A DNA stretch of 64,000 nucleotides from Clostridia bacterium (GCA_017476605.1 JAFUZM010000088.1:112-64111); one strand, 5' to 3'; positions 1,155 to 25,254 are shown, numbered from the stretch's first letter. Notes: generated by a model from the sequence alone, not told the origin. Program-made: numbers and translations.

Positions 1155-1224
1155 CCTCCTTTGCAGGAACGTTAGGGTTTGTTGATTTTTAAGGTGCCTG
1201 TTTCCCGATAAACTGGCAGAACGC
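1155..1224 (-). repeat. Dispersed SD-terminal intergenic element, copy A (degenerate)
   Basis: Minus strand reads GCGTTCTGCCAG...AAACAGGCACCTTAAAAATCAACAAACCCTAACGTTCCTGCAAAGGAGG, followed by N6-ATG of the MBL gene. It aligns with copies B and D (AATCAACAGACCCAACTGTACCTGCAGAGGAGG / ATCGACAAATCCCAATGTACCTGCAAAGGAGG). Confidence 0.5.
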
Positions 1225-1320
1225 TTCTTCTTCCGAGTACAGGAATTCCGGTCTGTTTGAAATCCTTCCAAATGTGATATAATCTTTGCAGCCGACGGAT
1301 TTCATTGATGAGGTTTATCT

Positions 1321-2832
1321 ATGAACAACAAGAAAACAATTGCGGACTACTGTCTGCTTGCTGCATCCGCTCTTCTTTTCCCTTTTCTTTTGTTTACGGT
1401 GTTAAACGGCTGCCTGTCCCCATGGCCGTTATATGATCGAAACCGCGTGCTGATCAGCACGCTTACGGTTGTGATCAGCGTGTTGTTTTTTGCACTCATC
1501 CGCCTGCTCATGAGGAAAAAACACCATGAGCAGAGCGGACTTCTGGATTTCTTCTGGGTTCTCGTCTTTTTTCTGATTCAGTTCTACAGTGCGCTTTTGC
1601 TGCGCCATACCCCGTTTACGGATACGGAACAGATCGTGACAGCTGCTGAAAATCTGGCTGCTGTCGGCAGCTTTGAACACGTCGAGCGGTCCTACCAGTA
1701 CCTTTCCTGGTATCCCTTCAACCTTGGTGCTGTTTATCTGTACGCTTTTCTGTTTAAAACGCTTTCTCTCATGGGCTTCCAGGATCACTATATGATCATT
1801 GCCCTTTTTGACAGCGGGCTGTTTGCACTAGGGTTCCTTGCCGGGCTCAATGCGGTCCGGCTGATTTCCGGGCAAAAATCCGCCTCTGTCTATACCTTGC
1901 TCGCGCTTCTCTGCTTTCCCTTTTATTACTGCACAGCAGAGCTTTATACGGATGTGCTGGCCCTTCCCTTTTCGACCATCATCCTCTATTTTTATCTTGT
2001 AGCCGGGAAATCGGGCTCAAAGAGAAACAGAATCATTTCTATTCTCCTGTTTGCTCTCTTTTCCGCAGCCGGTGCGCTCCTGCGTGTTACGACGATCATC
2101 ATCTCGATCGCCTGTCTCCTTGATGCGCTGTTTAAACGCCGCTTCCGGCTGTTTCTGGCGGCACTTGCCTGCCTTCTTGTGGCAATGCTTACGGGCAATA
2201 CGCTTTTTGAACGTGCAAACGCCCGTCATTTAGGCGCAGAAAATCTGAGAGTGCATCGCCTCTCTGTCTGGCATTATCTGGCAATGGGCCTTCCGACCCA
2301 TGAGGATTATGGCTACGGGCAGTACGGAGACGGCGGATGGCTGCTGCTTTCGACGTCCTTTGAGGATCCGCAGGAACGCGATGATGCGCTTAAGGAAATC
2401 ATCCGGGACCGGGTGTATTATCTCCGCTATCCGAATCGGCTGCTCAATATGCTCTCAAGGAAAAATGTATCGACCTTTGGAGATGGCACCTTCCATCTCA
2501 ATCAGCTGATCGAAGCGGATGAGCATGCGGTCAATAACCCGCTCAAGGAAATCATCTATGCCCAGGGGAAATTCAATAAAGGATATACCGCCCTATGCAC
2601 TGCGATCTTCTATTCACAGATGATTCTGGCCGGATACAGCCTGCTTCTTTATCTGCGGAGGAAGGACACCGGCGGGGCACCGGTTTTTATTGCCCTTCTC
2701 GGTGCGTTTATTTATCTGACACTCTGGGAAACAAATGCACGCTATTTCTTTGTGTTTGAGTTTCTTCTGATCATAGCAGCCTCCATCCGGCCTGTGGCCC
2801 TTTTGGCCACGGATGATCGTCCGCAGAGGTGA
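1321..2832 (+). CDS. Polytopic membrane protein, GT-C-fold glycosyltransferase-like (family 39 / ArnT-PMT-like)
   Basis: 503-aa ORF with GAGG 7 nt upstream and an extended -10 (TGATATAAT) at about 1273-1281. It has at least 10 hydrophobic segments and a loop-rich C-terminal third. The family assignment rests on overall architecture only. Confidence 0.5.
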   Translation: MNNKKTIADYCLLAASALLFPFLLFTVLNGCLSPWPLYDRNRVLISTLTVVISVLFFALIRLLMRKKHHEQSGLLDFFWVLVFFLIQFYSALLLRHTPFTDTEQIVTAAENLAAVGSFEHVERSYQYLSWYPFNLGAVYLYAFLFKTLSLMGFQDHYMIIALFDSGLFALGFLAGLNAVRLISGQKSASVYTLLALLCFPFYYCTAELYTDVLALPFSTIILYFYLVAGKSGSKRNRIISILLFALFSAAGALLRVTTIIISIACLLDALFKRRFRLFLAALACLLVAMLTGNTLFERANARHLGAENLRVHRLSVWHYLAMGLPTHEDYGYGQYGDGGWLLLSTSFEDPQERDDALKEIIRDRVYYLRYPNRLLNMLSRKNVSTFGDGTFHLNQLIEADEHAVNNPLKEIIYAQGKFNKGYTALCTAIFYSQMILAGYSLLLYLRRKDTGGAPVFIALLGAFIYLTLWETNARYFFVFEFLLIIAASIRPVALLATDDRPQR

Positions 2833-2850
2833 TTCTCACAGGAACCGGTC

Positions 2851-4413
2851 TCAGTCGACATCCATATCCTCAAGGGCACTGAGACCAACCTTGGCGACCG
2901 GGCGTGAATCTCCGTGCCGGACAAACTGCATGGTGACAAAGGCCAGGACAGCGAAGATGACGGCATACGGGAACAGCGTCAGCATTCCGTATTTATCCAT
3001 AATCATACCCGAGAGAATCGGCGTTGCAATCTGCGCAGCCATGGAGGCGGTATAGTAAATGCCGGTAAAGCGCCCTACGTCCGCCTCGCTGCACATTTCG
3101 ACCACCATGGGGAACGAATTGACATTGATGGTGGCCCAGCCGATACCGGCCAGTGCAAACATTACATTCATCACGGCTGTCGGACTGCCTGCACGCATGA
3201 AGGCGGCAATGAAGAAGGCGGTGGCCAGCATCACGACACCGGCAAGAATTGTCTTTTTCCGTCCGATTCTGGAGGCGATGATGCCTACCGGGATATAGGA
3301 GCAGATGGCGGCGACCTGAGCGATGATTAAGGTCAGGTTATAATTCTTATTCAGAATGCTTGTCGCATAGACGGAGTATTTTGAGGTCACTGCATTATAG
3401 GCCATGAACCAGAGGACGATGGACGCAAGGAGAAACATCATCGAACGTTTTTGAGATGCTCCCATCTGCCCCTTTCCGGAGCTTTCCTTATCCTCCTGCT
3501 CAATACCGTACTTTTTGCTGTCCTCATGCATCTTTCTCACAAGCTGCGGTTCCCGGACCGTAAGCATGAACAGCACAAGTGCCAGGGTCATGATGGCGGC
3601 AATGGTTGTAAAATATCCCGTATAGCCCATCATCGTATTTTCAAGCGCACTGGTCCGAAAGACCATTCCGAGCACAAGGACGATGATGCCGCCGGCGGAG
3701 CCCATCAGGTTGATGATGGCATTTGCCTTTGAGCGTAACGGCTTGATCGTTACATCCGGCATCAGGGCAACGGCTGGTGAACGGAACGTTGCCATCGAAA
3801 CAAGCACAATCAGCAGAAGAACGATAAACAGGACCAGAATTCCGGGATGGGTCAGAGTGATCTGTCGGGTAAATGCCTGCCTCGCCGGGACGACCACCTG
3901 GGTATAGAGAGGATTCACTGCCTCTTCCCCATTTATGATCGTTCTGCTTGTAATTGCCGTGAACTCCTCTTCGGTAAAACGCTCGGAAAGGACAAAGGTT
4001 TCTCCCTCCGGCGTTGTGATTTCAGCCAGCTTCTCGGCTTCATAGATAGTCGCAAGAGCGCCTGAATCGTCAATCTTTGCGGCTTCCTCGATTTTTCTCA
4101 GCTGCATGCCGTCAACAAAGGACAGAAGGATAAAAGCGATAACGGCAGTGATGGTGCCAAAAAGGATAAAGGGTGTCCGTCTTCCAAGTTTCGTATTCGT
4201 CTTGTCCGAGAGGGTTCCAAACAAAGGCAGCAGAAAGAGCGCCAAAATATTATCCAGCGCCATGATAAATCCGGACCACGTCTGATTCATTCCGAATTTG
4301 TTTGTGAGGATCATTGGAATGGTGTTATCATATGCCTGCCAGAAGGCACAGATTAAGAAGAAGGCAAATCCTACACAGATCACTTGTCTGTTGTTCAGTT
4401 TTGGTGCTTTCAT
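2851..4413 (-). CDS. MFS transporter with a large central soluble loop
   Basis: 520-aa ORF. N-terminal SDKTNTKLGRRTPFILFG is the MFS loop 2-3 motif (GRRxPF). About 12 TM segments, plus an acidic insertion of roughly 90 aa (RKIEEAAKIDD...TEEEFTAITS). Confidence 0.8.
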   Translation of the reverse strand: MKAPKLNNRQVICVGFAFFLICAFWQAYDNTIPMILTNKFGMNQTWSGFIMALDNILALFLLPLFGTLSDKTNTKLGRRTPFILFGTITAVIAFILLSFVDGMQLRKIEEAAKIDDSGALATIYEAEKLAEITTPEGETFVLSERFTEEEFTAITSRTIINGEEAVNPLYTQVVVPARQAFTRQITLTHPGILVLFIVLLLIVLVSMATFRSPAVALMPDVTIKPLRSKANAIINLMGSAGGIIVLVLGMVFRTSALENTMMGYTGYFTTIAAIMTLALVLFMLTVREPQLVRKMHEDSKKYGIEQEDKESSGKGQMGASQKRSMMFLLASIVLWFMAYNAVTSKYSVYATSILNKNYNLTLIIAQVAAICSYIPVGIIASRIGRKKTILAGVVMLATAFFIAAFMRAGSPTAVMNVMFALAGIGWATINVNSFPMVVEMCSEADVGRFTGIYYTASMAAQIATPILSGMIMDKYGMLTLFPYAVIFAVLAFVTMQFVRHGDSRPVAKVGLSALEDMDVD

Positions 4414-4480
4414 TGTTTTGCTTTTCCTTTCTTATCTTATGGATATTTGTTTACTGGTTTCGAGATTGTGAGGAATGTGT

Positions 4481-4888
4481 ATGTTGAAGAAAGCCTTTTT
4501 GGTGCTGATCCCCTTTATTCTCTTGTTTCTGTTCGGCGTGATTCTCCTGATACGTCCTCATGATCAGGTAAGGATCATAGAAGTGACGGATACCTTTACC
4601 AGGCAGGAGAAGACGGGTATGCGATCCTCACACAGGCATACGGTTGATTATGCCAATGTTATCGTGGAAGTGAATGGCACTCAGCATGTTGTCACCGTCC
4701 ATGATCATACCTGGGATCCATTGAAGGCCGGTGACAGTGTGGTAGTCACAACGAGCCTTGGCGGGAAAATCGTTGAGTATAAAACGGAAAATGCCTACAG
4801 ACTGATGGCCTTTGCCGCCATCATGGGGTCTGTGGTTATGGGGCTGTTTGTTCTTATCGCGAGACGAAGAAGGAAAACGATGACGTGA
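4481..4888 (+). CDS. Small two-TM membrane protein (DUF3592-like topology), function unknown
   Basis: ORF 4475..4888. The ATG at 4481 has the better spacing (7 nt) to GAGG. An N-terminal TM (LVLIPFILLFLFGVILLI) and a C-terminal TM (LMAFAAIMGSVVMGLFVLIA, then RRRRK) flank a beta-rich middle region. Confidence 0.5.
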   Translation: MLKKAFLVLIPFILLFLFGVILLIRPHDQVRIIEVTDTFTRQEKTGMRSSHRHTVDYANVIVEVNGTQHVVTVHDHTWDPLKAGDSVVVTTSLGGKIVEYKTENAYRLMAFAAIMGSVVMGLFVLIARRRRKTMT

Positions 4889-5090
4889 ACGGCAGAGCCG
4901 AATAACGGGCAGAACAGAAAAGCGTACATCGGGATGGGTTATCCCTGGCTTTTCTCTTCCGAAATGGCTGCATTTCGGAAGAAAGATCAAAACCATCCCG
5001 TTTCGGGACCCGTGATCTGCGCTGGTTCCCTATCCTGTTTGACTGTACCTCAAAAGTGCTACTTATTCTTTTGACAATTTGGAGGCAGAA

Positions 5091-5888
5091 GTGTTCATTC
5101 TCATTATCTTACTTGTTTTGGTACTACTTTTTCTTTTTCTGATTGCACCCTCAAGGGAAGCTGGACGGTTTTCCCAGTTTCAGGGCAGAACCTATGCACA
5201 TCGGGGATTATACAGCGAGAACCAGTCCATCACGGAAAATACACTTGAAGCGTTTGACAAGGCAGCAAGCCTTGGGTATGGGATAGAGCTTGACATTCGC
5301 TTTACCAAGGACAAAAAGATCGTCGTTTTCCACGATAACACACTGACGCGATTTGCCGGAAAAGATATCCGAATAGATGAGATGGAGTATGCGGAACTGG
5401 CGGGCATTTTGCTGCCCGGTCATTCGCATATTCCGCTATTTACAGAGGTTCTTGACTGTGTCAGGGGACGTGTCCCCCTCATCGTTGAGATCAAAAACGG
5501 GAGAAACGATCCGGAGCTTTGCGCGTCTGCGCTTGCGATCCTTCAAAAATATGATGGGCCGTTTTGCATTGAAAGCTTTGACCCAAGAATTGTCAGGTGG
5601 TTTAAAAAGAATGCACCGGATATCTGTCGGGGACAACTGGCCTGCAGTGTGCCCACTGCCGACAAGGGAACGCCAAGAATTGTTGCCTTTGCGGCCTCCC
5701 GCTGTATGCTGAATTTCCTTTCCCGTCCCCACTTTGTTGCCTATGAGCTGACAAAAAAGCCGTTCAGCGTAAAGCTCTGCGAGAAACTGGGTGCCATTCC
5801 TGTTTGCTGGACCAGTCACGCATTAAGCGACCACGGGAAAAACCAGATGGTCATCTTTGAATACTATTATCCGGAGACGCACTTTTAA
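5091..5888 (+). CDS. Membrane-anchored glycerophosphodiester phosphodiesterase (GDPD family)
   Basis: AHRGLY...ENTLEAFDKAASLGYGIELDIRFTKDKKIVVFHD matches the GDPD catalytic signature (HRG, E-N-T, ELD, HD). The ORF track starts at TTG 5079. GTG 5091 lies 6 nt after GGAGG and is the more likely start. Confidence 0.8.
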   Translation: MFILIILLVLVLLFLFLIAPSREAGRFSQFQGRTYAHRGLYSENQSITENTLEAFDKAASLGYGIELDIRFTKDKKIVVFHDNTLTRFAGKDIRIDEMEYAELAGILLPGHSHIPLFTEVLDCVRGRVPLIVEIKNGRNDPELCASALAILQKYDGPFCIESFDPRIVRWFKKNAPDICRGQLACSVPTADKGTPRIVAFAASRCMLNFLSRPHFVAYELTKKPFSVKLCEKLGAIPVCWTSHALSDHGKNQMVIFEYYYPETHF

Positions 5889-5937
5889 ACTCCTGCCTAT
5901 TTTATCATATTCAAAACAAAGAAACAATTTATTGAGT

Positions 5938-5966
5938 AAACCCGCTGGTTATTTCCAGCGGGTTTA
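5938..5966. terminator. Hairpin between convergent genes (bidirectional terminator candidate)
   Basis: AAACCCGCTGG-TTATTT-CCAGCGGGTTT. It is an 11-bp perfect stem, and the U-tracts on both sides are weak. Confidence 0.45.
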
Positions 5967-5971
5967 CGCGT

Positions 5972-6412
5972 TTATGAAATTGAAAGTGCGCTGTTTCTTG
6001 CCTCATCATATTCCTTTTGAAGCTTTTTCTCATCTGCCTCGCTCCAGACAAAGAGATCCAGAAGGTCCTTAAGGAATGCGATGCGTTCTGCTTTCCTATT
6101 TGTATTGGCCAGATGCATGTTCATTCCGATCAGCGTATTGGCAAAATCCATTTGCATACCTCTTTCGCCATGCTCATCTTCACTGAAAATGTAGAGATCT
6201 GTAATTGCCTTCTTTTTAATATCCTCAATCCGGTACTGCTCTAAAATTGCTTTTTTGAGACCCTGCCAATGAGAAAGAAAGACATCGACAATCCTCTGCT
6301 CATCCTCATCAAAATCCGACCATACTTCCTCTATTTCGCTGAGAAAATCGACAATGGGCAGACTGGAAACTTCAAGCTGAGTTGTCGGTATTTTCCCGTT
6401 TTTGATTTTCAC
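5972..6412 (-). CDS. Hypothetical acidic cytoplasmic protein
   Basis: 146-aa ORF with a GTG start, AAGAGG upstream and its own strong promoter. I recognise no family. Local sequence is visibly AT-richer than the neighbouring genes. Confidence 0.5.
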   Translation of the reverse strand: MKIKNGKIPTTQLEVSSLPIVDFLSEIEEVWSDFDEDEQRIVDVFLSHWQGLKKAILEQYRIEDIKKKAITDLYIFSEDEHGERGMQMDFANTLIGMNMHLANTNRKAERIAFLKDLLDLFVWSEADEKKLQKEYDEARNSALSIS

Positions 6413-6482
6413 ATTAAAGCCTCTTTTCGTTTCTTAAGATCGAATGGTGCTATTGGCACAACTCGTTCAGAGAACCGAATTC

Positions 6483-6511
6483 ATTCTATCTTATTCCACA
6501 GACATCGTCAA
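6483..6511 (-). promoter_or_regulatory. Sigma-A promoter for the 146-aa gene
   Basis: Minus strand reads TTGACG-17 nt-TAGAAT. Confidence 0.5.
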
Positions 6512-6542
6512 CACCTTTAAGAAACTTTTGGAGACTTAAAAA

Positions 6543-8309
6543 TCAAAGGTCAGATGCCGTCCTGATGATTTTTGCCGTTCCTCCATTGGCACTGATGGCC
6601 TTTTGAATGGCAGCCTGATGATCCGAGTCTACCTTATAGCTCCCGCTTGTCCGTGAATTCAGGAAATGGAGACAGAATTGCCCGCTGAAGCTGTTGTTTG
6701 TGATCACCTGCTGACCATGGGGCTGTCCGTAGATGGAGCATGCGATCCGATAACCGTTTGGCGAGGTAATCACAGCCGGACGCCGTACGTATGAGATCGC
6801 TGAAGCACTTGAAACATTGAATATTGAACAAAGCGTTGCTGTATCCGAACTGGTGGCCGGTTCAACATCCAGGTGATATCCGGCAGACTGGATATAGACG
6901 CGAAGGCTCTTTCCGGTAGCAACATCTGTCAGGGTTGCGTAATTTCCCTTTACAAAACCGATTTTTGAAAAGACGCCATTCTCTTTGGCAGTGAACCAGT
7001 CAAGAGAGTAAATATTTGCGGAATCCGCAGAATCTCCCGGATTTTGCGCGGCATCCTCGCTTTCGCTTCCACCGTTTCGAAGAGCGGCAATCGTTGCCGG
7101 GTCAAGGGTTCCGGTCTGGGAAAGACCGTTTTGCTTCTGGAACTTAATAACGGCATCTCTTGTCTTGGTTCCGAAATGACCGGTAATATCACCGCTGTAC
7201 AGCTTCATTCCTCTTAGAATCTGCTGCATCTCAGAGATCACATCTGCACGGTCACCAACGGAATATGTCCTTGTATCGCTCTGTTCCGCAGTGGTTGAGG
7301 ATGCGGCAGTAGCCTGAGACGAACTTGGGAGATTTCCATACAGGAGTGCCTGAATGGTTGAAGTGTCCGCATTTCCAGTTGCACTGAGGCCGACAGCTTT
7401 CTGATATTTCCTGACAGCCGCCTCTGTCTTGCTTCCATAATGACCGGTGATGTCGCCACTGTAATACCCCAGCTGAGCCAGTCGTTTCTGAACCTCGAGC
7501 ACAAGGTCTCCGGTTGAATCAAGGCTCAGGGTTCCGCTTTCCCAGGTGGTGTCTGTCTGATTCTGAACCGCATCAGCGTTATCATATACGTTTTCCGAGC
7601 TGCTTTCCGGTTCGCTTTTCCCCTCTGCTTTTTCGCGGATCATGCGAAGCGTCGTCTCATCCAGTTCTCCTGTTGCATTTAATCCCACGCGCCGCTGGAA
7701 GGCCTTGATCGAATTGGTTGTAATTGTCCCAATATTGCCGGTGATATCACCGTAATAAATGCCCATCTCCTTCAGTGCCTGCTGGACGTACATAACGGTT
7801 TCTTTCTGGGAATTGGAAGAGTTGGCAGAACCCACGGCGTTTGTCGCTTCAGAGCTCGCCTTGACAGGCTCACTGGATGCCGAATCAATGCTTTGGGCAG
7901 ATTCCTGCCAGGCGTCAATATTGATGCGCGGGACGCCGCTTCTGGTGCCTGCCGTCTCCTCAGGCAGCATGCCAAGAGGAAGACCGAATTCATTTGAAAA
8001 CTGCTCTGCACCGAAGGTAAACACATATTCCTTGTTCCCTTCCTTTTGCGCGACCCAGCCGCTGCCGGTTTCACCATCCGCATTGATGTAGTCAACACCG
8101 ATGAACATGAGATTTCCGTTTTGTACATAGCGGCGAATAAAGACACATCTGTCCTCAAGCAGATTGTCAATGATTTCTCCGTTTAGTGAAGGCGTGGATC
8201 TCACCCGAACACGCGTCTCCGTTATTCCGTATTCGTTATCCGCAAAGCCTGCTGTCAAAATGCCCATCATCAGGGCAGCAAGGCAAAAGATCAGGATGAT
8301 TTTTTTCAT
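6543..8309 (-). CDS. Secreted protein with an SH3b domain, three PG_binding_1 repeats and a C-terminal domain of unknown function
   Basis: ORF trimmed to ATG 8309 (AGGAGG about 9 nt upstream), which opens with the signal peptide MKKIILIFCLAALMMGILTAGFA. TRVRVRSTPSLNGEII is SH3b-like. There are three copies of the peptidoglycan-binding motif (LKEMGIYYGDITGNIGTITTNSIKAFQRRVGLNATGELD; LAQLGYYSGDITGHYGSKTEAAVRKYQKAVGLSATGNAD; LRGMKLYSGDITGHFGTKTRDAVIKFQKQNGLSQTGTLD). Confidence 0.8.
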   Translation of the reverse strand: MKKIILIFCLAALMMGILTAGFADNEYGITETRVRVRSTPSLNGEIIDNLLEDRCVFIRRYVQNGNLMFIGVDYINADGETGSGWVAQKEGNKEYVFTFGAEQFSNEFGLPLGMLPEETAGTRSGVPRINIDAWQESAQSIDSASSEPVKASSEATNAVGSANSSNSQKETVMYVQQALKEMGIYYGDITGNIGTITTNSIKAFQRRVGLNATGELDETTLRMIREKAEGKSEPESSSENVYDNADAVQNQTDTTWESGTLSLDSTGDLVLEVQKRLAQLGYYSGDITGHYGSKTEAAVRKYQKAVGLSATGNADTSTIQALLYGNLPSSSQATAASSTTAEQSDTRTYSVGDRADVISEMQQILRGMKLYSGDITGHFGTKTRDAVIKFQKQNGLSQTGTLDPATIAALRNGGSESEDAAQNPGDSADSANIYSLDWFTAKENGVFSKIGFVKGNYATLTDVATGKSLRVYIQSAGYHLDVEPATSSDTATLCSIFNVSSASAISYVRRPAVITSPNGYRIACSIYGQPHGQQVITNNSFSGQFCLHFLNSRTSGSYKVDSDHQAAIQKAISANGGTAKIIRTASDL

Positions 8310-8319
8310 CGTTCTCATT

Positions 8320-8418
8320 CCTCCTCTGCAGGTACAGTTGGGTCTGTTGATTCGCCAAGCCATATGTCAAGTACCTGCTTTCTGACAAAACCATCGCGTA
8401 CGCGATGGGCATGGCTCC
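8320..8418 (-). repeat. Dispersed SD-terminal intergenic element, copy B (gene-proximal)
   Basis: Minus strand reads CCATCGCGTACGCGATGGTTTTGTCAGAAAGCAGGTACTTGACATATGGCTTGGCGAATCAACAGACCCAACTGTACCTGCAGAGGAGG. GCAGGTAC and GTACCTGC are perfect reverse complements, and the 3' arm abuts the SD. Confidence 0.7.
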
Positions 8419-8478
8419 TCTGGCAGGCAACTTGGTCTTTCGGCGTAGTGACTTTGTCAGTGCTCGTTACCTGACAAA

Positions 8479-8560
8479 CTCCTCATCAGGTGCGTCTGTG
8501 TTTGTTGATGTGCCAAGCCATTCTGCCGCGTACCTGCCTCGTGGCAGAATGGCTTGGCTC
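8479..8560 (-). repeat. Dispersed element, copy B' (tandem distal copy in the same leader) embedded in a 16-bp perfect hairpin
   Basis: Minus strand reads GCCAAGCCATTCTGCC-ACGAGGCAGGTACGC-GGCAGAATGGCTTGGC ACATCAACAAACACAGACGCACCTGATGAGGAG. It aligns with copy B (ATGGCTTGGC.AATCAACA.AC...ACCTG..GAGGAG). Confidence 0.6.
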
Positions 8561-8779
8561 CTTATGAACAGAATTGTACTGCATTTGCGGTGTCGGAGCT
8601 ATCTTTATGACGAAACAGGAAACCGGGTTTATCCCACCGGGGCAGACAGGAATGTTCAGAGAAGACACACGATTATTTTTCCTTATGGCCGTATAATTTT
8701 TTCTTTTACCGTTTTATCCCCAAACGCCTGTTTATTTAGCGAAATATTAACAAAACGTTCGGATATTGTTATTTTTTTG

Positions 8780-8793
8780 ACAATTATAATTGT
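8780..8793. promoter_or_regulatory. Perfect 14-bp palindrome (candidate operator) in the divergent control region
   Basis: ACAATTATAATTGT, preceded by ATTGT-N10-ACAAT (8765-8784). It lies in the AT-rich region between the leader of the PG-binding gene and MATE-1. Confidence 0.3.
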
Positions 8794-8915
8794 TTCTTTG
8801 GATTCGATCATGAATTATTATTTGTTTTTATAGTTTGTTTTCGCTATAATCCATATAAATTTGAACCGGATTTTAGTTATTGTTCCATAAACTTTTTAAA
8901 GGGGAGGCGGCAAAA

Positions 8916-10352
8916 ATGAGTTATGAGCGTCGGAACATTTTTGAAAATGTTCCTGTGTTACAGGCAATTATAAGACTTGCCATCCCCACCATGATTGGGC
9001 AAATCATTCTGGTTTTGTATAACATGGCAGATACCTTTTTCATTGGTATTACCGGCAGCGACGCCATGCTTGCCGCTGTGACTGTCTGTACACCTGCCTT
9101 CATGTTTCTCTCGGCGATTTCCAATTTGTTTGGAGTCGGAGGCGCAAGTGCAATTGCGAGGGCTCTTGGTCGAAAAGATACGGACTGCGCATATGACTGC
9201 TCCGCGTTCAGCTTTTATGGCTGCCTCATGGTAACGGCAATCTATTCTCTTGGTGTACTGTGCTTCCTCGACAATATGATCAATCTTCTTGGAGGATCAA
9301 ACCCGGAGGTTCATCAGTTTGCCAGAGTCTATATGACGATTACGGTCGTCATCGGCGGGCTTTCAACCTCAATGAATGCGCTGCTTGCCCATCTGATTCG
9401 TTCAGAGGGCCGAGCCATGCAGGCCTCTATTGGAATTGCGCTTGGCGGTATCTTTAATATTGCGCTGGATCCGCTGTTCATGTTTGTGATTCTTCCAAAG
9501 GGAAATGAACTCATGGGTGCGGCAATCGCGACTGCGCTATCAAATACGCTTGCCCTCCTCTATTTCGTATTCATTCTGGTTCATATTCGCAAACAAAGCG
9601 TTCTGCGTTTCAGATGGAAATCGCAGGTGCTGAGCGGTCCGATCCCGGGCGAGATTATTCGTGTAGGTCTTCCTGCCTGTATGATGACGCTTTGTGAGAA
9701 CATCTCCTTTTCTGTCATGGATGCGCTTGTCGCTGTTCATGGTCTTTCGTATCAGGCAGGCCTTGGTGTTGCCAAAAAAGTCAACATGCTGGCACACTGC
9801 ATTGTTCGCGGGATTTCTCAGGGCGTTTTGCCTCTGATTGCCTATAACTATGCCGCAGGTCAAAAGAAACGGATGCACGATGTCATTCGGAGCTCGCTTA
9901 TTATTGCTGTGGGTATGGCGAGCCTATGTACTGCGATCAGCCTGTTTGGCGCAAGAGAGCTGATTTCCATTTTCATTCATAATGCCTCTGATTCGCTTGA
10001 TCATGGGATTACCTACCTTCGCATCCTGTGCATCGGCTGTCCCTTCTCAGCTCTGGCGTACATCCTGATTTCCGTGTTTCAGGCCGTCAATTTCGGAGGC
10101 GAATCTCTGATTCTTGCCTTACTCAGAAAGGGAATTCTGGATATTCCTCTTCTCTTCGTACTGAACAGAGCGCTTCCCCCATACGGCTTGGCCTGGGCGA
10201 CGCCCGGTGCAGATTTCATCTGCGCCATATGTGCCATTACGCTATATGAATTGTTTAAAAAGCAGATCAACCGCGGAACAGCGGTTTCTCTGACGGATCG
10301 AATTCATGATATGGCGATTCTCAAAGCCTTCACCCGGGCGCAAGTCCGGTGA
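8916..10352 (+). CDS. MATE family efflux transporter (paralogue 1)
   Basis: ORF trimmed to ATG 8916 (GGGGAGG upstream). Twelve TM segments. It shares long identical blocks with paralogue 2 (LAIPTMIGQI, GVAKKVNMLAHCIVRGISQGVLPLIAYNYA, LRKGILDIPLLF). Confidence 0.85.
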   Translation: MSYERRNIFENVPVLQAIIRLAIPTMIGQIILVLYNMADTFFIGITGSDAMLAAVTVCTPAFMFLSAISNLFGVGGASAIARALGRKDTDCAYDCSAFSFYGCLMVTAIYSLGVLCFLDNMINLLGGSNPEVHQFARVYMTITVVIGGLSTSMNALLAHLIRSEGRAMQASIGIALGGIFNIALDPLFMFVILPKGNELMGAAIATALSNTLALLYFVFILVHIRKQSVLRFRWKSQVLSGPIPGEIIRVGLPACMMTLCENISFSVMDALVAVHGLSYQAGLGVAKKVNMLAHCIVRGISQGVLPLIAYNYAAGQKKRMHDVIRSSLIIAVGMASLCTAISLFGARELISIFIHNASDSLDHGITYLRILCIGCPFSALAYILISVFQAVNFGGESLILALLRKGILDIPLLFVLNRALPPYGLAWATPGADFICAICAITLYELFKKQINRGTAVSLTDRIHDMAILKAFTRAQVR

Positions 10353-10377: not shown

Positions 10378-10409
10378 AGCCTTGTCGCAAGGACAAGGCT
10401 CTCTTTTAT
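10378..10409 (+). terminator. Rho-independent terminator after MATE-1
   Basis: AGCCTTGTC-GCAAG-GACAAGGCT followed by CTCTTTTAT. Confidence 0.55.
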
Positions 10410-10420
10410 GAAGTTTCATA

Positions 10421-10517
10421 GGGCAATGCCCAACGCAAAGCGGCAGTTCTCTCACTAAAGCAGGTACTTGACAGAATTGCCGGGAAAACCATCTAACAGA
10501 GTGTACCTGAAGAGGAG
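10421..10517 (+). repeat. Dispersed SD-terminal intergenic element, copy C
   Basis: GGGCAATGCCCAACGCAAAGCGGCAGTTCTCTCACTAAAGCAGGTACTTGACAGAATTGCCGGGAAAACCATCTAACAGAGTGTACCTGAAGAGGAG, followed by the start of MATE-2. Confidence 0.7.
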
Positions 10518-10524
10518 CATGTCT

Positions 10525-11916
10525 ATGATCAGTGGCAGAAAAAAAGATTTGTTTGAATCTTCATCGGTATTCAGTGCCATACTGCAGCTGGCAATTCCAA
10601 CCATGATTGGCCAGATTATTATGGTAATCTACAACATGGCCGATACCTTCTTTATCGGCCAGACCGGAAGCGATGCCATGATCGCTGCGGCTACGGTATG
10701 TATGCCGGCATTCATGTTTCTTTCTGCTATTTCGAACCTCTTCGGCGTGGGTGGCTCCAGTGCCATTGCAAGGGCGCTTGGCAGACACAAAAATGATCGT
10801 GCGCGTCTTTGCTCCTCTTTCAGTTTCTATGGGTGCCTGATCGTTACCCTGCTTTACGCGTTGGGCGTTTTCCTGTTTTTGGATAAGATGGTTTATCTCC
10901 TTGGCGGACATGACCCGGAGGTTCATGCCTATGCCAAACAGTATATGATCATTACCGTCATTCTCGGCAGTCTTCCCGCGTCCATGAATGCGCTGCTTGC
11001 CCATCTCATTCGATCCGAGGGACGGTCCCTGCATGCGGCAGTCGGCGTTGCACTTGGCGGTATACTGAATATTCTTCTGGATCCGCTTTTCATGTTTGTG
11101 CTGCTCCCCAAAGGACAGGAAATCCGAGGTGCTGCCATTGCAACCACACTTTCTAATGTGGCATCCCTTCTCTATTTTACACTGGTGATTTATGCGGGAC
11201 GGAAAAAGAGCGTCCTGTCTTTCAAAATCAGTCATGAGGTATTAAAAGACAGCATTCCAAGAGAGATTCTTCTGATTGGACTTCCTGCATGCTGCATGAC
11301 ACTTTGCGAGAATATTTCCTATGCGGTCATGGATGCACTGGTTGCCGGTCAGGGGCTTACCTATCAGGCAGGGCTTGGCGTTGCCAAGAAAGTCAATATG
11401 CTGGCTCACTGCATTGTCCGTGGCATATCCCAGGGCGTTTTACCCCTGATTGCCTACAATTATGCTTCCAAAAATTCAAAAAGGATGTATAATGCACTCA
11501 GACTTTCCGTTATGCTCTCTGTCATTATGGCAACACTTTGTACAATTGCCAGTCTCTTACTGAGCAGGGAACTGATTGGTGTCTTCATCCACCATGCCTC
11601 GGCGTCTCTTGATTACGGCTCTGTTTTCCTCCGGATTCTCTGCATTGGCGGTCCGTTCTCCGCGCTCGCCTACATGCTCATTTCCTTTTTTCAGGCGGTT
11701 GAGAGAGGACAGCAATCGCTTATTCTCGCTCTTCTTCGCAAGGGTATCCTGGACATTCCTCTTCTGTTCCTCCTGAATTTCCTGTTACCGCCTTTCGGCC
11801 TTGCTTGGGCAACACCGATTGCAGACATCTTCTGTTCTGTCGTTGCAATTTTACTCTTTCTTAAGTTTCTTCATCATCACACCAAAATCCAGCCGATTCT
11901 GGATCACAATGAATAA
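10525..11916 (+). CDS. MATE family efflux transporter (paralogue 2)
   Basis: ORF 10468..11916. The ATG at 10525 lies 7 nt after AGAGGAG, while the ATG at 10519 is too close to it. Collinear with paralogue 1 over its whole length. Confidence 0.85.
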   Translation: MISGRKKDLFESSSVFSAILQLAIPTMIGQIIMVIYNMADTFFIGQTGSDAMIAAATVCMPAFMFLSAISNLFGVGGSSAIARALGRHKNDRARLCSSFSFYGCLIVTLLYALGVFLFLDKMVYLLGGHDPEVHAYAKQYMIITVILGSLPASMNALLAHLIRSEGRSLHAAVGVALGGILNILLDPLFMFVLLPKGQEIRGAAIATTLSNVASLLYFTLVIYAGRKKSVLSFKISHEVLKDSIPREILLIGLPACCMTLCENISYAVMDALVAGQGLTYQAGLGVAKKVNMLAHCIVRGISQGVLPLIAYNYASKNSKRMYNALRLSVMLSVIMATLCTIASLLLSRELIGVFIHHASASLDYGSVFLRILCIGGPFSALAYMLISFFQAVERGQQSLILALLRKGILDIPLLFLLNFLLPPFGLAWATPIADIFCSVVAILLFLKFLHHHTKIQPILDHNE

Positions 11917-16131: not shown

Positions 16132-18186
16132 ATGAAAAAATTGTTCCCTGTGCTTGTCCTTGTTTTTGTACTGGTCTGCACATCTGCAATGGCTCAGTCT
16201 GTAACAGGGACGACAACAAATCCCTACGTATATTCAAATACTTCCTCAACAAACCCATATGCAAGTACTGCCGCTTCCAGCGGATTAACATCATCTTCTT
16301 CCAGCTTATCGACGGGAAGCAGTACAACCCAGTCTACAGCGACGAACCCTTATGCTCCATCTGGTGTGTCGAGCAGTTCAAGTACGAGCAGTGCGGTTTC
16401 GGATCCGTATAGCTCTGCCTATTCTACGACGACAACAACGACAGATCCGTACAGCTCTGCGTATTCCACGACAACGACGACGAATCCGTACAGCTCCGCG
16501 TATTCCACGACAACAACAGATCCGTACAGTTCTGCGTATTCCACGTCAACGACAACGGACCCGTACAGCTCCGCGTATTCTACATCAACAACAACGACGG
16601 ACCCATACAGCTCCGCATATTCCACGACAACGACGACGGACCCGTACAGCTCCGCGTATTCTACGACAACGACGACGGATCCGTACAGCTCTGCGTATTC
16701 CACGACAACGACGACGGACCCGTACAGCTCCGCGTATTCCACGACAACGACGACGGACCCGTACAGCTCCGCGTATTCCACGACAACAACAACGACAGAT
16801 CCGTACAGCTCTGCATATTCCACGACAACGACGACGGATCCATACAGCTCCGCGTACTCCACGACTTCAACGACAAATCCGTATAGCTCTGCCTATTCTA
16901 CGACGACAACAACGACAGATCCGTACAGCTCTGCGTATTCCACGACAACGACGACAGATCCGTATAGCTCTGCATATTCCACAACAACGACAGATCCATA
17001 TAGTTCTGCTTACTCTGCCACGAATCCGTACAGCTCTGCATACTCCACAACGACAACAGACCCGTACAGCTCTGTATATTCCACAACAACAGATCCATAT
17101 AGCTCTGCTTATTCAGTAACGAATCCGTATAGCTCTGCTTACTCGACAAACTCAGCGGATCCCTATGCGAGTTCTCAGGCGGCGAACAGCGGAACGTTGA
17201 ATACCGGCTCAACAGCAAATACGTTTTTCCCGTCTTACCCGATTGCGACAACGACTGCAAGCCCTGCAGCCAGCACATCGGAAACCTCTTCTGAGAGTCT
17301 TTCCTCCGATACAACGACAACCAGTTGGTATTCCGGCTTTACAAGTTCAGACAGCGAAGGAACGGATGTCTCCTCCATTAACGGATGGTCAACAGATACA
17401 GCCAATACGTCTGCAGCTGCGGATTTGTCCTCTGATTTAAGCTCAGTTGCCTCTGCGGGAACGCCCGAATATAAGAGCACCCAGAAATTCATGGATTATT
17501 TGGTTGATCAGGGCATTGACTGCACATATCGCGGGAAACGCGATGAAACCTCTGAAATGCTTCAGTCCGTGATTACGGCAAATAATCTCAAACTGAACAT
17601 CATCTCTGTTTTCTCAAGTGAAACGGATTGCGCCATGTACGCCGTTGAGCTCGTCAGTTTCGAAGGCAAGAATCAGTCCCAGGTAAGCGAGTTTGTCGAT
17701 GCATTGAATGCTGAGTATCGCTTTGTTCGCTTCTATACCTCTCCTGATGAGATGATCAATGCCACCCTTGACCTGCTCTTTACCGATTCCACCGTTGAGG
17801 AAATCTGCTTTGATGGTTTCCGCCGACTGGTGAACATCTGTGATGAGGTGTATCCGTCTCTTGCTTTGTCCATCTCTGAGCTTGTAAGTGACAGCGCAGC
17901 TTCCTCCGGTCTTGAACTGACAACGACCTATGCCAGCGGTACGGGGACTACTACGCCGACCTCTACTCCGGAACCGCAGGCAGTCCTCATGAAGGTTAAA
18001 ACGAGACCCGGCGGAACGGTAAATGTTCGTCAGACACCGGATGCCAACGGTCTGCTGGTAGGTACTGTCGATGGAAATACCACACTGGATTGCCTGAGCG
18101 TTGCCAGCAATGGGTGGTATGAGGTCCGCCTTTCCAATGGAATGACCGGATATATTTCCAATAAAAAAGCGTCCGAAGTAAAATGA
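16132..18186 (+). CDS. Secreted Ser/Thr-rich tandem-repeat protein with a central YbjN-like(?) domain and a C-terminal SH3b domain
   Basis: ORF trimmed to ATG 16132 (GGAGG 7 nt upstream), which opens with the signal peptide MKKLFPVLVLVFVLVCTSAMA. About 20 copies of (D/N)PYSSAYSTTTTT. The central FMDYLVDQGIDCTYRG...LNAEYRFVRFYTSPDEMINATLDL is tentatively YbjN-like. The C-terminus VNVRQTPDANGLLVGTVDGNTTLDCLSVASNGWYEVRL..GYISNK is SH3b. Confidence 0.8.
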   Translation: MKKLFPVLVLVFVLVCTSAMAQSVTGTTTNPYVYSNTSSTNPYASTAASSGLTSSSSSLSTGSSTTQSTATNPYAPSGVSSSSSTSSAVSDPYSSAYSTTTTTTDPYSSAYSTTTTTNPYSSAYSTTTTDPYSSAYSTSTTTDPYSSAYSTSTTTTDPYSSAYSTTTTTDPYSSAYSTTTTTDPYSSAYSTTTTTDPYSSAYSTTTTTDPYSSAYSTTTTTTDPYSSAYSTTTTTDPYSSAYSTTSTTNPYSSAYSTTTTTTDPYSSAYSTTTTTDPYSSAYSTTTTDPYSSAYSATNPYSSAYSTTTTDPYSSVYSTTTDPYSSAYSVTNPYSSAYSTNSADPYASSQAANSGTLNTGSTANTFFPSYPIATTTASPAASTSETSSESLSSDTTTTSWYSGFTSSDSEGTDVSSINGWSTDTANTSAAADLSSDLSSVASAGTPEYKSTQKFMDYLVDQGIDCTYRGKRDETSEMLQSVITANNLKLNIISVFSSETDCAMYAVELVSFEGKNQSQVSEFVDALNAEYRFVRFYTSPDEMINATLDLLFTDSTVEEICFDGFRRLVNICDEVYPSLALSISELVSDSAASSGLELTTTYASGTGTTTPTSTPEPQAVLMKVKTRPGGTVNVRQTPDANGLLVGTVDGNTTLDCLSVASNGWYEVRLSNGMTGYISNKKASEVK
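16402..17160 (+). repeat. In-frame tandem repeat, unit mostly 39 nt (30-42 nt), about 20 copies
   Basis: GATCCGTACAGCTC(T/C)GCGTATTCCACGACAACGACGACG is reiterated. Unit-length variation comes from the number of ACN (Thr) codons. The other frames give the spurious ORFs 16352..17119 and 16419..16862. Confidence 0.9.
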
Positions 18187-21882: not shown

Positions 21883-21896
21883 GTGGAGATGTACCC

Positions 21897-21978
21897 GTCG
21901 GGCAAGCGATGGTTCTGTCACGAAGCATGTACTTGACAGTTGGCAAATCGACAAATCCCAATGTACCTGCAAAGGAGG
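21897..21978 (+). repeat. Dispersed SD-terminal intergenic element, copy D (inside the sdaAB-sdaAA operon)
   Basis: GTCGGGCAAGCGATGGTTCTGTCACGAAGCATGTACTTGACAGTTGGCAAATCGACAAATCCCAATGTACCTGCAAAGGAGG, then N7-ATG of sdaAA. Confidence 0.7.
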
Positions 21979-21985
21979 TATGTGC

Positions 21986-22831
21986 ATGGAGTACCATTCC
22001 ATCCAGGAGCTGGTCACACTTGCCGGCGAAATGCCTATTTCAGATGTCGTTTTGAAATGCGAATCAGAAATCAGCGGAGAAACACCGGATGCGTTGAAAG
22101 ATCGCATGCTCCATCATTTGCAAACCATGTTTCAGTCCATTGAGGCTGGCATGAATCCGGAACTAAAAAGCAATTCCGGATTGGTAGGCGGTCAGGCAAG
22201 TAAATTGGCTCAGGCAACAGATCAGGGACAGATCTTCAGTGATCCGTTTCTTGGACATATGGAAGCCAGAGCGCTTGCGGTTGCGGAGTGCAATGCAAGC
22301 ATGGGAAAAATCGTTGCAGCTCCGACAGCCGGTTCCTGCGGGATACTGCCTTCTGCCCTGTTTACCGCCCAGGAAAAATATGGGTATTCAGAGAAGGTAT
22401 TGGTCAACGCGCTCTTCACTGCTGCCGGAATCGGAGCCGTGATTGCGGATCGTGCAAGCATTTCAGGCGCTGAGGGCGGATGCCAGGCAGAATGCGGTAC
22501 TGCGGCAGCCATGGCAGCCGCAGCACTTACGCAACTGAGAGGTGGAGATGCCAAGGCCTGCGCGAACGCTGTTGCTTTTACGCTGATGAACATGATGGGA
22601 CTTGTATGTGATCCGTTAAACGGACTCGTTGAGATTCCCTGCGTTTACCGGAATGTCTCAGGTGCCGCCAACGCAGCGATAGCAGCGGATATGGCGCTTG
22701 CAGGTCTTGTCTCTGTACTTTCAGCAGATGATCTTATTGATGCTATGGGAAAAGTTGGCCGGATGATGCCGGAAAGTCTAAGAGAAACCGGCAAAGGCGG
22801 ATGTGCGACCTGTCCCATTTCTCCAGCATAA
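21986..22831 (+). CDS. sdaAA: L-serine dehydratase (iron-sulfur-dependent), alpha subunit
   Basis: ORF 21788..22831 trimmed to ATG 21986 (AAGGAGG 7 nt upstream). MEYHSIQELV..., APTAGSCGILP, SGAEGGCQAECG and GLVCDP are typical SdaAA blocks. The ORF's 5' extension reads through the intergenic repeat. Confidence 0.85.
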   Translation: MEYHSIQELVTLAGEMPISDVVLKCESEISGETPDALKDRMLHHLQTMFQSIEAGMNPELKSNSGLVGGQASKLAQATDQGQIFSDPFLGHMEARALAVAECNASMGKIVAAPTAGSCGILPSALFTAQEKYGYSEKVLVNALFTAAGIGAVIADRASISGAEGGCQAECGTAAAMAAAALTQLRGGDAKACANAVAFTLMNMMGLVCDPLNGLVEIPCVYRNVSGAANAAIAADMALAGLVSVLSADDLIDAMGKVGRMMPESLRETGKGGCATCPISPA

Positions 22832-24777: not shown

Positions 24778-24805
24778 ATAAAAAAAGGAGGATTTCTCCT
24801 CCTTT
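24778..24805 (-). terminator. Rho-independent terminator after the His/Gly-rich gene, built from the SD-like end of repeat copy E
   Basis: Minus strand reads AAGGAGGA-GAAA-TCCTCCTT followed by TTTTTAT. Confidence 0.6.
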
Positions 24806-24890
24806 GCAGGTACGGTTGTGTTTGAAAGGCTTTCAAGGCAATTCTGCCGGGTACTTTCGTGGATGGAAGAACCATTTACGCGATGCGCGT
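24798..24890 (-). repeat. Dispersed intergenic element, copy E
   Basis: Minus strand reads CGCATCGCGTAAATGGTTCTTCCATCCACGAAAGTACCCGGCAGAATTGCCTTGAAAGCCTTTCAAACACAACCGTACCTGCAAAGGAGG. It shares ATCGCGTA..ATGGTT.T, GGCAGAAT(T/G)GC and GTACCTGCAAAGGAGG with copies B, B', C and D. Confidence 0.65.
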
Positions 24891-24903
24891 CCTTCCTTCA
24901 CGA

Positions 24904-25194
24904 TTAGAAATGACGACCAGCGCCGCCGCCACGAGAATGGCCACCGCCAAAGCCACCCATGTGACCGCCGCCGAAACCACCCATACGACCACCACCAAAG
25001 CCGCCCATGTGGCCAAAACCACCCATGGGTCCAAAGCTACCAAAATTGCCGTGATAGAAATTGTGGGGATGATGATAGTGCGGATGGTCATACATGTGAA
25101 TACCGAAGAACGGATCACGGTAGAATGTCCTTCTCCTCGGACGATCATTGAAAACAGCACACAGAATCAAAAACAATACGATAATGCTCAACAT
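24904..25194 (-). CDS. 96-aa single-pass membrane mini-protein, His/Gly/Met-rich (putative metal-binding)
   Basis: ATG 25194 lies 8 nt after AGGAGG. The track's GTG 25212 would place the SD inside the ORF. The protein is MLSIIVLFLILCAVF (TM), then HMYDHPHYHHPHNFYH, then MGGFGH/MGGFGGGR/MGGFGGGH/MGGFGGGH repeats, with 11 His in total. A riboswitch lies upstream and a terminator downstream on the same strand. The overlapping ORFs 24771..25151(+), 24859..25200(+) and 24876..25160(-) are repeat shadows. Confidence 0.6.
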   Translation of the reverse strand: MLSIIVLFLILCAVFNDRPRRRTFYRDPFFGIHMYDHPHYHHPHNFYHGNFGSFGPMGGFGHMGGFGGGRMGGFGGGHMGGFGGGHSRGGGAGRHF

Positions 25195-25254
25195 TTGTAG
25201 TTCCTCCTTCACTTAAGTCATTTTGTGGGGTTCCTGTACAAATGAATGATCTGA

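Follow-up and report, generated by a model that had tools for sequence, protein, structure and literature searches.

A short dispersed non-coding repeat with GGAG-type motifs at its borders, probably inserted at Shine-Dalgarno-like sites in a rumen Clostridia bacterium

We analysed a 64,000-nt stretch of chromosomal DNA, here called the window, from an uncultured ruminant-gut (rumen) Clostridia bacterium (GCA_017476605.1 JAFUZM010000088.1:112-64111; samples from the ENA 'XIEF21-1' metagenomes). It carries a family of short intergenic units whose 3' ends form a Shine-Dalgarno (SD) sequence. An earlier inspection made without database searches (the sequence-only reading) had listed six such copies, named A, B, B', C, D and E, and these were recovered: an nhmmer profile of the six gave exactly six matches in 64 kb, with E-values of 1e-18 to 1e-26 and a runner-up at 0.86, and models made from the other five copies found each one left out, with E from 1e-4 (A) to 1e-17 (B). 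The very degenerate further copy suspected at 5020-5070 gave no nhmmer match even at E<=100. All six fall within the window's initial 25 kb, with none in 25-64 kb, and any two of them are 71-87% identical. A 31-nt degenerate pattern of the 3' part of the unit matched four copies, where 0.00 matches are expected by chance, and GTACCTG occurs eight times (2.3 expected), seven of them inside copies. Pfam confirmed the identities given for the functionally unrelated genes that follow A, B, C and D; they encode an MBL hydrolase, a PG_binding protein, a MatE protein and an SDH_alpha chain. The proposed distance of 6-9 nt between element and start codon fits A (6 nt), C (7 nt) and D (7 nt), whereas in B the GGAG(G) lies 10 nt from the start.

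Copy A (1155..1236, minus strand; nhmmer E 1e-18) is truncated at its 5' side and ends in AAAGGAGG; a spacing of 6 nt separates it from the ATG of the gene for a secreted MBL-fold hydrolase (339-1148). That gene is hypervariable: three lineages are 85-95% identical per 200-nt segment across it, with a step exactly at element A and its SD site and a return to higher identity past the stop codon, while an adjacent 503-aa open reading frame (ORF) is 99.5-100% identical. Upstream of the secreted PG_binding protein gene, three units stand in tandem in the order B', a 64-nt sub-unit that we call the module, and B. B' (8479..8561, minus strand) is an orphan that no start codon follows, and it contains a near-perfect palindrome of 16-19 bp; at 8512-8558 this palindrome spans 19 nt with 95% complementarity and 16 perfect pairs, has a predicted folding energy of -45.9 kcal/mol (z -6.3), and attracts weak, meaningless Rfam miRNA matches. 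The module (8415..8478, minus strand) has a hairpin, TTTGTCAG...CTGACAAA, ends in CAGAGGAG and joins B' to B. In B (8321..8414, minus strand) the core runs from CCATGCCC through GTACCTG to a second CAGAGGAG, 10 nt from the ATG at 8309, and this 8-bp direct repeat thus brackets the copy, at 8415-8422 and 8321-8328.

Copy C (10420..10517, plus strand) occupies the space between the intrinsic terminator (10378-10400) of one MatE gene and the start of the next, and ends in GAGGAG 7 nt before the ATG at 10525. The two MatE genes are tandem paralogues (8916-10352 and 10525-11916; 71-79% nucleotide identity), and a family copy, C, precedes the second only. Copy D (21885..21978, plus strand) is intercistronic: a GGAG lies 2 nt past the sdaAB stop codon, the unit follows, and its AAAGGAGG is 7 nt from the sdaAA ATG at 21986. 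Copy E (24798..24896, minus strand), another orphan, sits in the 3' untranslated region (UTR) of a small Gly-rich ORF, where an intrinsic terminator (24805-24784; AAAGGAGGA-GAAA-TCCTCCTTT with a T-run) has the copy's SD-like end, AAAGGAGGA, as its 5' arm. This ORF (24904-25212) has GGF/GGH repeats that derive from 24-nt DNA repeats, has no Pfam match, and lies upstream of genes for an extracytoplasmic function (ECF) sigma factor and a DUF4349 protein.

Contigs from strains of the same species extended the family by two full copies (F and G) and three copies of the module. F with a module precedes the GTG of the Tal gene, and G with a module stands directly before the GTG of the tape-measure gene, in a prophage-like tail cluster (contigs L133 and L134), so that the module recurs there before G and after F. 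This cluster, with genes for tape measure, Dit and Tal, holds F, G and the two modules at 4087-4245 and 11207-11362 of L133/L134 and at 681-838 and 7792-8051 of L131; its neighbours encode HicB, an ATPase_2/DUF234 protein and two AAA-ATPase_like+PDDEXK_9 proteins. By their junctions the eight full copies measure 75-94 nt and the modules 64 nt, and the family as a whole comprises short, non-coding, multi-copy, dispersed units of ~65-105 nt. Every copy is in sense orientation relative to its flanking genes. Five of the eight (A, B, C, D and G) provide the sole SD of the next gene, placed 6-10 nt from the start codon, which upholds the earlier idea that the element delivers a ribosome-binding site (RBS); B', E and F have no start codon after them. 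The genes served in this way (a hydrolase, a PG-binding protein, a MATE pump, SdaAA and a phage tape-measure protein) are unrelated. In B, C and D an in-frame ATG also occurs 1-2 nt past the GGAG(G), two to three codons before the real start (8317-8319, ATG AGA ACG ATG; 10519-10521, ATG TCT ATG; 21980-21982, ATG TGC ATG); it is too near the SD to be a likely start.

The borders of the units follow a simple rule. We counted twelve units, namely A, B', B, C, D, E, F, G, three modules and a 611-nt gene cassette described below. A GGAG directly abuts the left junction exactly in 8/12 and as a near variant in 4/12, and all right ends are GGAG or GAAG. The SD that a unit supplies is AAAGGAGG or AGAGGAGG. 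Units stack head to tail in three arrangements (B'-module-B, F-module and module-G). When the flanks were compared, B had CAGAGGAG on both sides (8/8 positions) and B' had ATAAGGAG and ATGAGGAG (7/8); the bracketing motif is always of the GGAG type, so a target duplication, a fixed target and element-borne ends look alike.

Between these borders a full unit is built, 5' to 3', from the left GGAG, C(C/A)ATGCCC, a hairpin P1, a hairpin P2, an A/C-rich linker (AAATCAACAAACCCAAC), GTACCTGC and AAAGGAG(G). P1, which in B reads CCATCGCG-TA-CGCGATGG, is absent from A, B' and the module. P2 pairs GTTCTGTCA with TGACAGAA across a loop of 13-16 nt that contains GCAGGTAC. P1 (CCATCGCG/CGCGATGG) and P2 (TTCTGTCA/TGACAGAA) are unrelated to each other, and only P1 of B and G resembles a small GC palindrome or scores as terminator-like. 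The reverse-complementary arms that had been noticed earlier, GCAGGTAC and GTACCTGC, and the TGTCA/TGACA stem that encloses the first of them are present in the copies: on the six-copy alignment 78% of cells pair (23-39% for slid partners), and the figures are 78-81% against 23-40% overall, with the eight copies included. Indels vary the spacing of the arms between 30 and 37 nt. The stem nearest the 3' end is 7 nt away from it, and only if the helix with the 35-nt loop is counted.

Six-frame translations of the copies contained no conserved ORF; stop codons interrupt the frames, and hardly any 5-residue words are common to diverged copies. No sigma-70-like promoter was seen in A-E or G, and F has one weak 9/12 match. 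Terminal inverted repeats are absent: when reverse-complemented, the 3' end (CAGGTACAGTTG or CTCCTTTGCAGG) does not match the 5' end (CCATGCCCATCG), and all inverted repeats are internal. Neither the window nor the gene lists of the related loci retrieved include a transposase. The ~95 kb of the species examined, which is also the coverage of the family survey within the species, showed neither a Y1 transposase nor a RAYT. Outside it, scans of JGI metagenomes with ~40-bit patterns, scans of IMG/VR (one of them protein-based) and blastn against plasmids and phages each returned 0 matches, and a scan of a genome collection with the loose pattern GTACN{25,50}GTACCTGMARAGGAG gave 103 chance matches (L002-L104) and 0 family members. 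Nor did ~60 kb from relatives with 67-70% SdaAA identity hold any copy. Rfam 15 at its gathering score found no tRNA, rRNA, riboswitch or other family in the entire 64 kb; with the cut-off relaxed to E<=10, the copies were overlapped only by chance-level matches (miRNA-like ones on the B' palindrome and one of 14 bits at the 3' end of A). Several other identities were considered and rejected. A leader peptide starting from GGAG-N2-ATG at the 5' end has too short a spacing and its peptides are not conserved; the TTGACA in B, C and D lacks a -10 box at a spacing of 16-18 nt; inspection by eye ruled out a Spo0A box and promoter motifs of the sigma-54 and ECF types, and orientation and context ruled out an integron attC site and CRISPR.

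Copy D offers a view of a site as it may have been before a unit arrived. In the relatives mentioned above (L105 and L108-L111) the sdaAB-sdaAA spacer is only 9 or 16 nt long and the SD directly follows the stop codon, the junctions reading TAGGAGGcagtcATG and TAAcgGGAGGggagcggacATG. In the window the same interval reads TAAgtGGAG, an 89-nt unit ending in GGAG, and GtatgtgcATG; with D removed it would read TAAgtGGAGGtatgtgcATG. Because the relatives' junctions hold only a short SD spacer, D appears to be an insertion just past the ancestral SD. Within the species D is present in all strain contigs that cross its site (L112, L118-L122, L128 and L129), C is present in L128-L132 and L135, and E is unchanged in 10/10 contigs (L118-L127); D and E score the same as the window copies in every strain contig.

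The sites of A, B and B' differ between strains, in sister lineages that are 96-99% identical to the window. A search with the MBL hydrolase retrieved a 94% allele whose contigs (L113-L117) are 98.5% identical to window 1237-8478; in these, ~10 nt stand in place of copy A (window 1161-1236) and the leader still reads CTGTACCTG-purines-GGAGG, while a third lineage (L135-L139) has copy A. In L113, B is present with five substitutions, and likeness to the window breaks off precisely where B' has its 3' end, at 8478/8479. L114 and L115 are missing both B and B', and unrelated AT-rich DNA is joined directly to CAGAGGAGGAATG...ATG. This DNA belongs to a cassette of 611 nt, since L130, L135 and other contigs show the full form. 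The cassette is AT-rich, encodes a small Xre-type helix-turn-helix protein, carries the 8-bp direct repeat CAGAGGAG on both flanks and obeys the junction rule. Most strain contigs have it inserted after B and ahead of the SD that serves the PG-binding gene (L130:7186-7796 and L135:2210-2820, with parts in L128, L129, L114, L115, L136 and L137), and it is absent from the window, where the insertion point is 8320/8321. Identity between lineages changes in steps at these places, from ~100% to 85-95% at A and from 96% to 99.3% at B. Further, module plus G and module plus B are 94% identical over 169 nt with an identical core of 76 nt, the likeness beginning at GAGGAG on the left and ending at GAGGAGG; within this core contig L131 passes from the MatE side into the tail cluster, as either a true recombinant or a chimeric scaffold.

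Taken at face value, the strain-variable copies suggest a repeat that moves or recombines, not a riboswitch. We favour, at a probability of roughly 60%, a lineage-restricted, non-autonomous, non-coding DNA repeat that lands at SD-like GGAG motifs and rebuilds the SD. Such a unit would enter transcribed non-coding DNA in sense, right after a purine run of GGAG type, and would bring its own (A/G)AGGAG end. Where the target is itself an SD, the old one would be kept at the left and a new consensus SD set 6-10 nt from the start codon, a kind of 'self-healing' insertion; since the unit carries its own SD-like end, the downstream gene would keep or gain a consensus SD at the right distance. Self-healing of this sort would account for the tolerance of units at translation starts, at a point where two cistrons of one operon meet and in the GGAGGA stem of a terminator, as well as for head-to-tail stacking and for a common leader on unrelated genes. 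Copying of a repeat to the 3' side of GGAG on the transcribed strand would likewise explain the intercistronic position of D, the placement of E in the GGAGGA stem, the near-identity of B and G and the presence or absence of units between strains. In the messenger RNA (mRNA), a unit would contribute the P2 hairpin, an unstructured A/C-rich linker and a strong SD, and the P2 loop could pair with GTACCTGC 3 nt before that SD. Dispersed copies may then serve as recombination substrates that reshuffle neighbouring genes. The copying would need a trans-acting enzyme encoded elsewhere, perhaps a single-stranded DNA (ssDNA) enzyme of the HUH type or a site-specific recombinase, and we infer both the directions of the indels and any effect on translation.

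A more specific form of the landing repeat deserves a place, tentatively and on the improbable side: an SD-homing mobile DNA in which an enzyme acting in trans integrates units, even the 611-nt gene cassette, 3' of GGAG on the sense strand, so that the SD is rebuilt and a fresh target made. That enzyme could be an ssDNA HUH-type protein, a serine/IS607-like recombinase or an RNA-guided IS110-like recombinase. A full-text literature search found no description of an insertion sequence (IS) family or a MITE family that homes to the SD with self-healing insertion. Small dispersed intergenic repeats that carry expression signals are a known sort of element; the GGAG-to-GGAG junction rule is unusual.

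Several observations weigh against a repeat that lands at GGAG. The units have no terminal inverted repeats, no cognate transposase in the DNA examined and no demonstrated excision or insertion intermediate, and their mobility is deduced from comparisons alone. The allele that lacks A keeps the 3' motif of the element, CTGTACCTG-purines-GGAGG, and for that reason may represent a resident copy that lost its interior, not an empty site. Similarly, a deletion in the cassette haplotype, from one 8-bp repeat to the other, could have produced the junction of B with its gene in the window, and chimeric scaffolding of metagenome reads across the 76-nt core could explain some joins, as in L131. C, D and E are fixed and unchanged in all strain contigs that cross them, and the survey is limited to ~95 kb of the species' genome. 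Finally, the helix strands and the SD hold most of the conservation, a pattern that simple neutral decay of dead copies would not give.

This last point leads to the reading that the units are leaders of a cis-regulatory RNA, which we think unlikely. The transcript would fold into an H-type pseudoknot in which the P2 loop GCAGGUAC pairs with GUACCUGC 3 nt before the SD, and a common trans-acting factor or signal (a protein, a small RNA, an ion or temperature) would tune access of the 30S subunit for a regulon; in a variant, the copies may have arrived by insertion and been co-opted later. H-type pseudoknot riboswitches and leaders that abut the SD, such as preQ1-I/II and SAM-II, have the same layout, with a hairpin loop that pairs a 3' segment beside the SD and an A-rich connecting loop. 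In the units the predicted geometry is feasible (L1 4-5 nt, L2 1 nt, L3 ~30 nt and A/C-rich, with the helix stopping 3 nt short of the SD), P2 as well as the loop-to-3' helix can form in 8/8 copies at the pairing frequencies given above, the copies are all in sense and five are immediately before start codons. By block, the four helix strands are 72-85% conserved and the SD 100%, while the loops (27-56%) approach the level of the flanks (27%). However, the pseudoknot helix has no both-sided change and 6/8 of its pairs depart by mismatch only, P2 has a single both-sided change (C-G vs U-A), and changes in P1 fall in poorly aligned columns. A compensatory change that we had assigned to the pseudoknot of copy A depends on the alignment and was withdrawn, as a second alignment positions A differently. 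Apart from B', the minimum free energy (MFE) z-scores are ordinary (+0.65 to -1.5). The predicted fold never sequesters the SD and contains no anti-SD sequence, Rfam gives no match above chance level even at E<=10, the downstream genes are unrelated, 3/8 copies lack a start codon, and D splits the operon of a two-subunit enzyme. Unlike such riboswitches, the units are repeated within one genome, absent from relatives and polymorphic between strains. A hairpin and a pseudoknot beside the SD are thus possible, with covariation that is almost nil.

Recombination by itself could also produce much of the pattern, if stem-loop and RBS cassettes were spread and lost by homologous or microhomology recombination among SD-like sequences and existing copies, GGAG being the microhomology and not a target. 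The edges of the indels do fall at short direct repeats (CAGAGGAG at B and at the 611-nt cassette, a CTGTAC-type repeat at A), identity between lineages steps at A and B as described, L131 joins two loci within the identical core of B and G, copies occur in a prophage-like cluster, and the promoter-bearing PeSL cassettes of phages offer a precedent (PMC2839356). Yet recombination between copies cannot seed the first copy between sdaAB and sdaAA, or in a terminator stem, where the homology amounted to no more than 4-6 nt; precise integration, time after time, through 4-8 nt of microhomology is very inefficient, while the rule holds in 12 units; and the units, unlike PeSLs, have no promoter. We regard this account as quite unlikely. 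A highly improbable alternative is that the units are DNA operators, with the 8-bp inverted repeat GCAGGTAC...GTACCTGC and/or the arms GTTCTGTCA...TGACAGAA as transcription factor sites that co-regulate the flanking genes. The conserved blocks do amount to two inverted-repeat pairs, and the GTTCTYT-like arm may resemble SinR-type half-sites. Against operators stand the indel-variable arm spacing, which would be unusual for them, the strict strand bias relative to genes, the location of copies downstream of promoters (in a 5' UTR, an intercistronic spacer or a 3' UTR) and the lack of any promoter within or overlapping the units.

The sequence-only reading had likewise preferred a repeat to a regulatory RNA, and had taken the differences between copies for drift rather than compensation. 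Both judgements agree with what we found: units present or absent between strains, a near-identical second copy before an unrelated gene, no unit at the relatives' sdaAB-sdaAA junction, and departures from pairing that are mismatches. Its other option, an undescribed cis-regulatory RNA family, is weakened by the Rfam result (no known RNA family beyond chance-level overlaps), the near absence of covariation, the unrelated genes, the three orphans and the strain polymorphism, and keeps in its favour that the four helix strands are the best conserved parts. A 'translational-control hairpin' was right insofar as a hairpin is possible, but the adjacent helix leaves the SD unpaired and there is no anti-SD to occlude it. 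The labels MITE and REP do not suit the units, for reasons that appear when known systems are compared.

The closest functional analogue is the REP2 repeat of Neisseria, together with the similar IR-A/IR-B of Borrelia (reviewed by Delihas 2011, PMC3184786). REP2 is also dispersed and intergenic, lacks terminal inverted repeats and has two internal inverted repeats able to form stem-loops, and its RBS end lies directly upstream of unrelated ORFs as a common 5' UTR; here the ATG follows the RBS in B, C and D. REP2 is longer (120-150 bp) and has a promoter, whereas the units are 65-105 nt without a sigma-70-like promoter; the GGAG-to-GGAG rule and head-to-tail stacking are unmentioned for REP2 in PMC3184786, and no co-regulation is known for the units. 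As Neisseria belongs to another phylum, we propose a functional analogy only. MITEs and small repeats such as Correia, RUP, BOX and SPRITE (PMC3184786, PMC3049150) are similarly short, non-coding, multi-copy, intergenic, co-transcribed, strain-polymorphic and able to alter expression signals. The units differ from them in having no parent IS that we could see and in that the flanking repeat is always the same SD-like motif, not a duplicated arbitrary sequence; because terminal inverted repeats are absent, strict membership among MITEs fails. Size and composition set them apart from REP/BIME elements mobilised by RAYT, which are GC-rich palindromes of 20-40 nt with a tetranucleotide head, whereas the units are 65-105-nt composites with an A/C-rich linker.

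PATEs of IS200/IS605 and REP/RAYT elements go into one strand at the 3' side of a short fixed motif, with no terminal inverted repeats and no obvious target duplication; the units appear alike in this, and also in their hairpin-containing ends, strand specificity and seamless presence or absence. The left GGAG and the sense orientation are compatible with the behaviour of IS200/IS605-derived PATEs but not specific to it. P1 and P2 are unlike each other, P1 is missing in A, B' and the module, the final 10-20 nt at the 3' side contain no hairpin, and the left flank and right end are identical over up to 8 nt in B and the Xre cassette; the dissimilar hairpins in particular exclude the units from the PATEs. 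PeSL cassettes of T4-type phages (Arbiol et al. 2010, PMC2839356) are short repeated cassettes on either side of variable genes, placed where insertions, deletions and replacements have their limits. The units behave alike in that identity steps at A and B and that the Xre cassette and the tail-cluster join lie at the 3' end of B, and some copies are phage-associated. PeSLs consist of a promoter and a terminator, the units of a stem-loop and an SD in mostly chromosomal housekeeping contexts, and without a promoter they are not PeSLs.

If the junction rule reflects a real integration mechanism, the units would form a mobile element able to target ribosome-binding sites and yet leave them intact. 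They would give unrelated genes a route to identical leaders and strong SDs, and would build up arrays of units in head-to-tail order as well as hot spots of recombination at which adjacent genes are reshuffled. Should recombination produce the rule merely as a by-product, this would be an ordinary lineage-specific repeat with a REP2-like layout. In practical terms the units mislead gene callers and are a likely cause of assembly ambiguity, as where L131 joins two loci in the B/G core. Public gene calls put the start of the PG-binding gene at the ATG at 8363 inside B (606 aa instead of 588) and include a spurious 142-aa ORF antisense to B and B' (8405-8833).

Two observations concern other parts of the window. 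The GDPD gene (5091-5888) is 93% identical between the window and L135 and 99.9% identical between the window and L113, a pattern that shows, as far as sequence comparison goes, mosaic recombination among co-occurring lineages. At 16351-17150, within the gene for a 704-aa SH3_3-domain protein, lie ~20 tandem repeats of 39 nt (13 aa); their number varies among strain contigs (the protein has 526 aa in L118), and several assemblies are broken by them.

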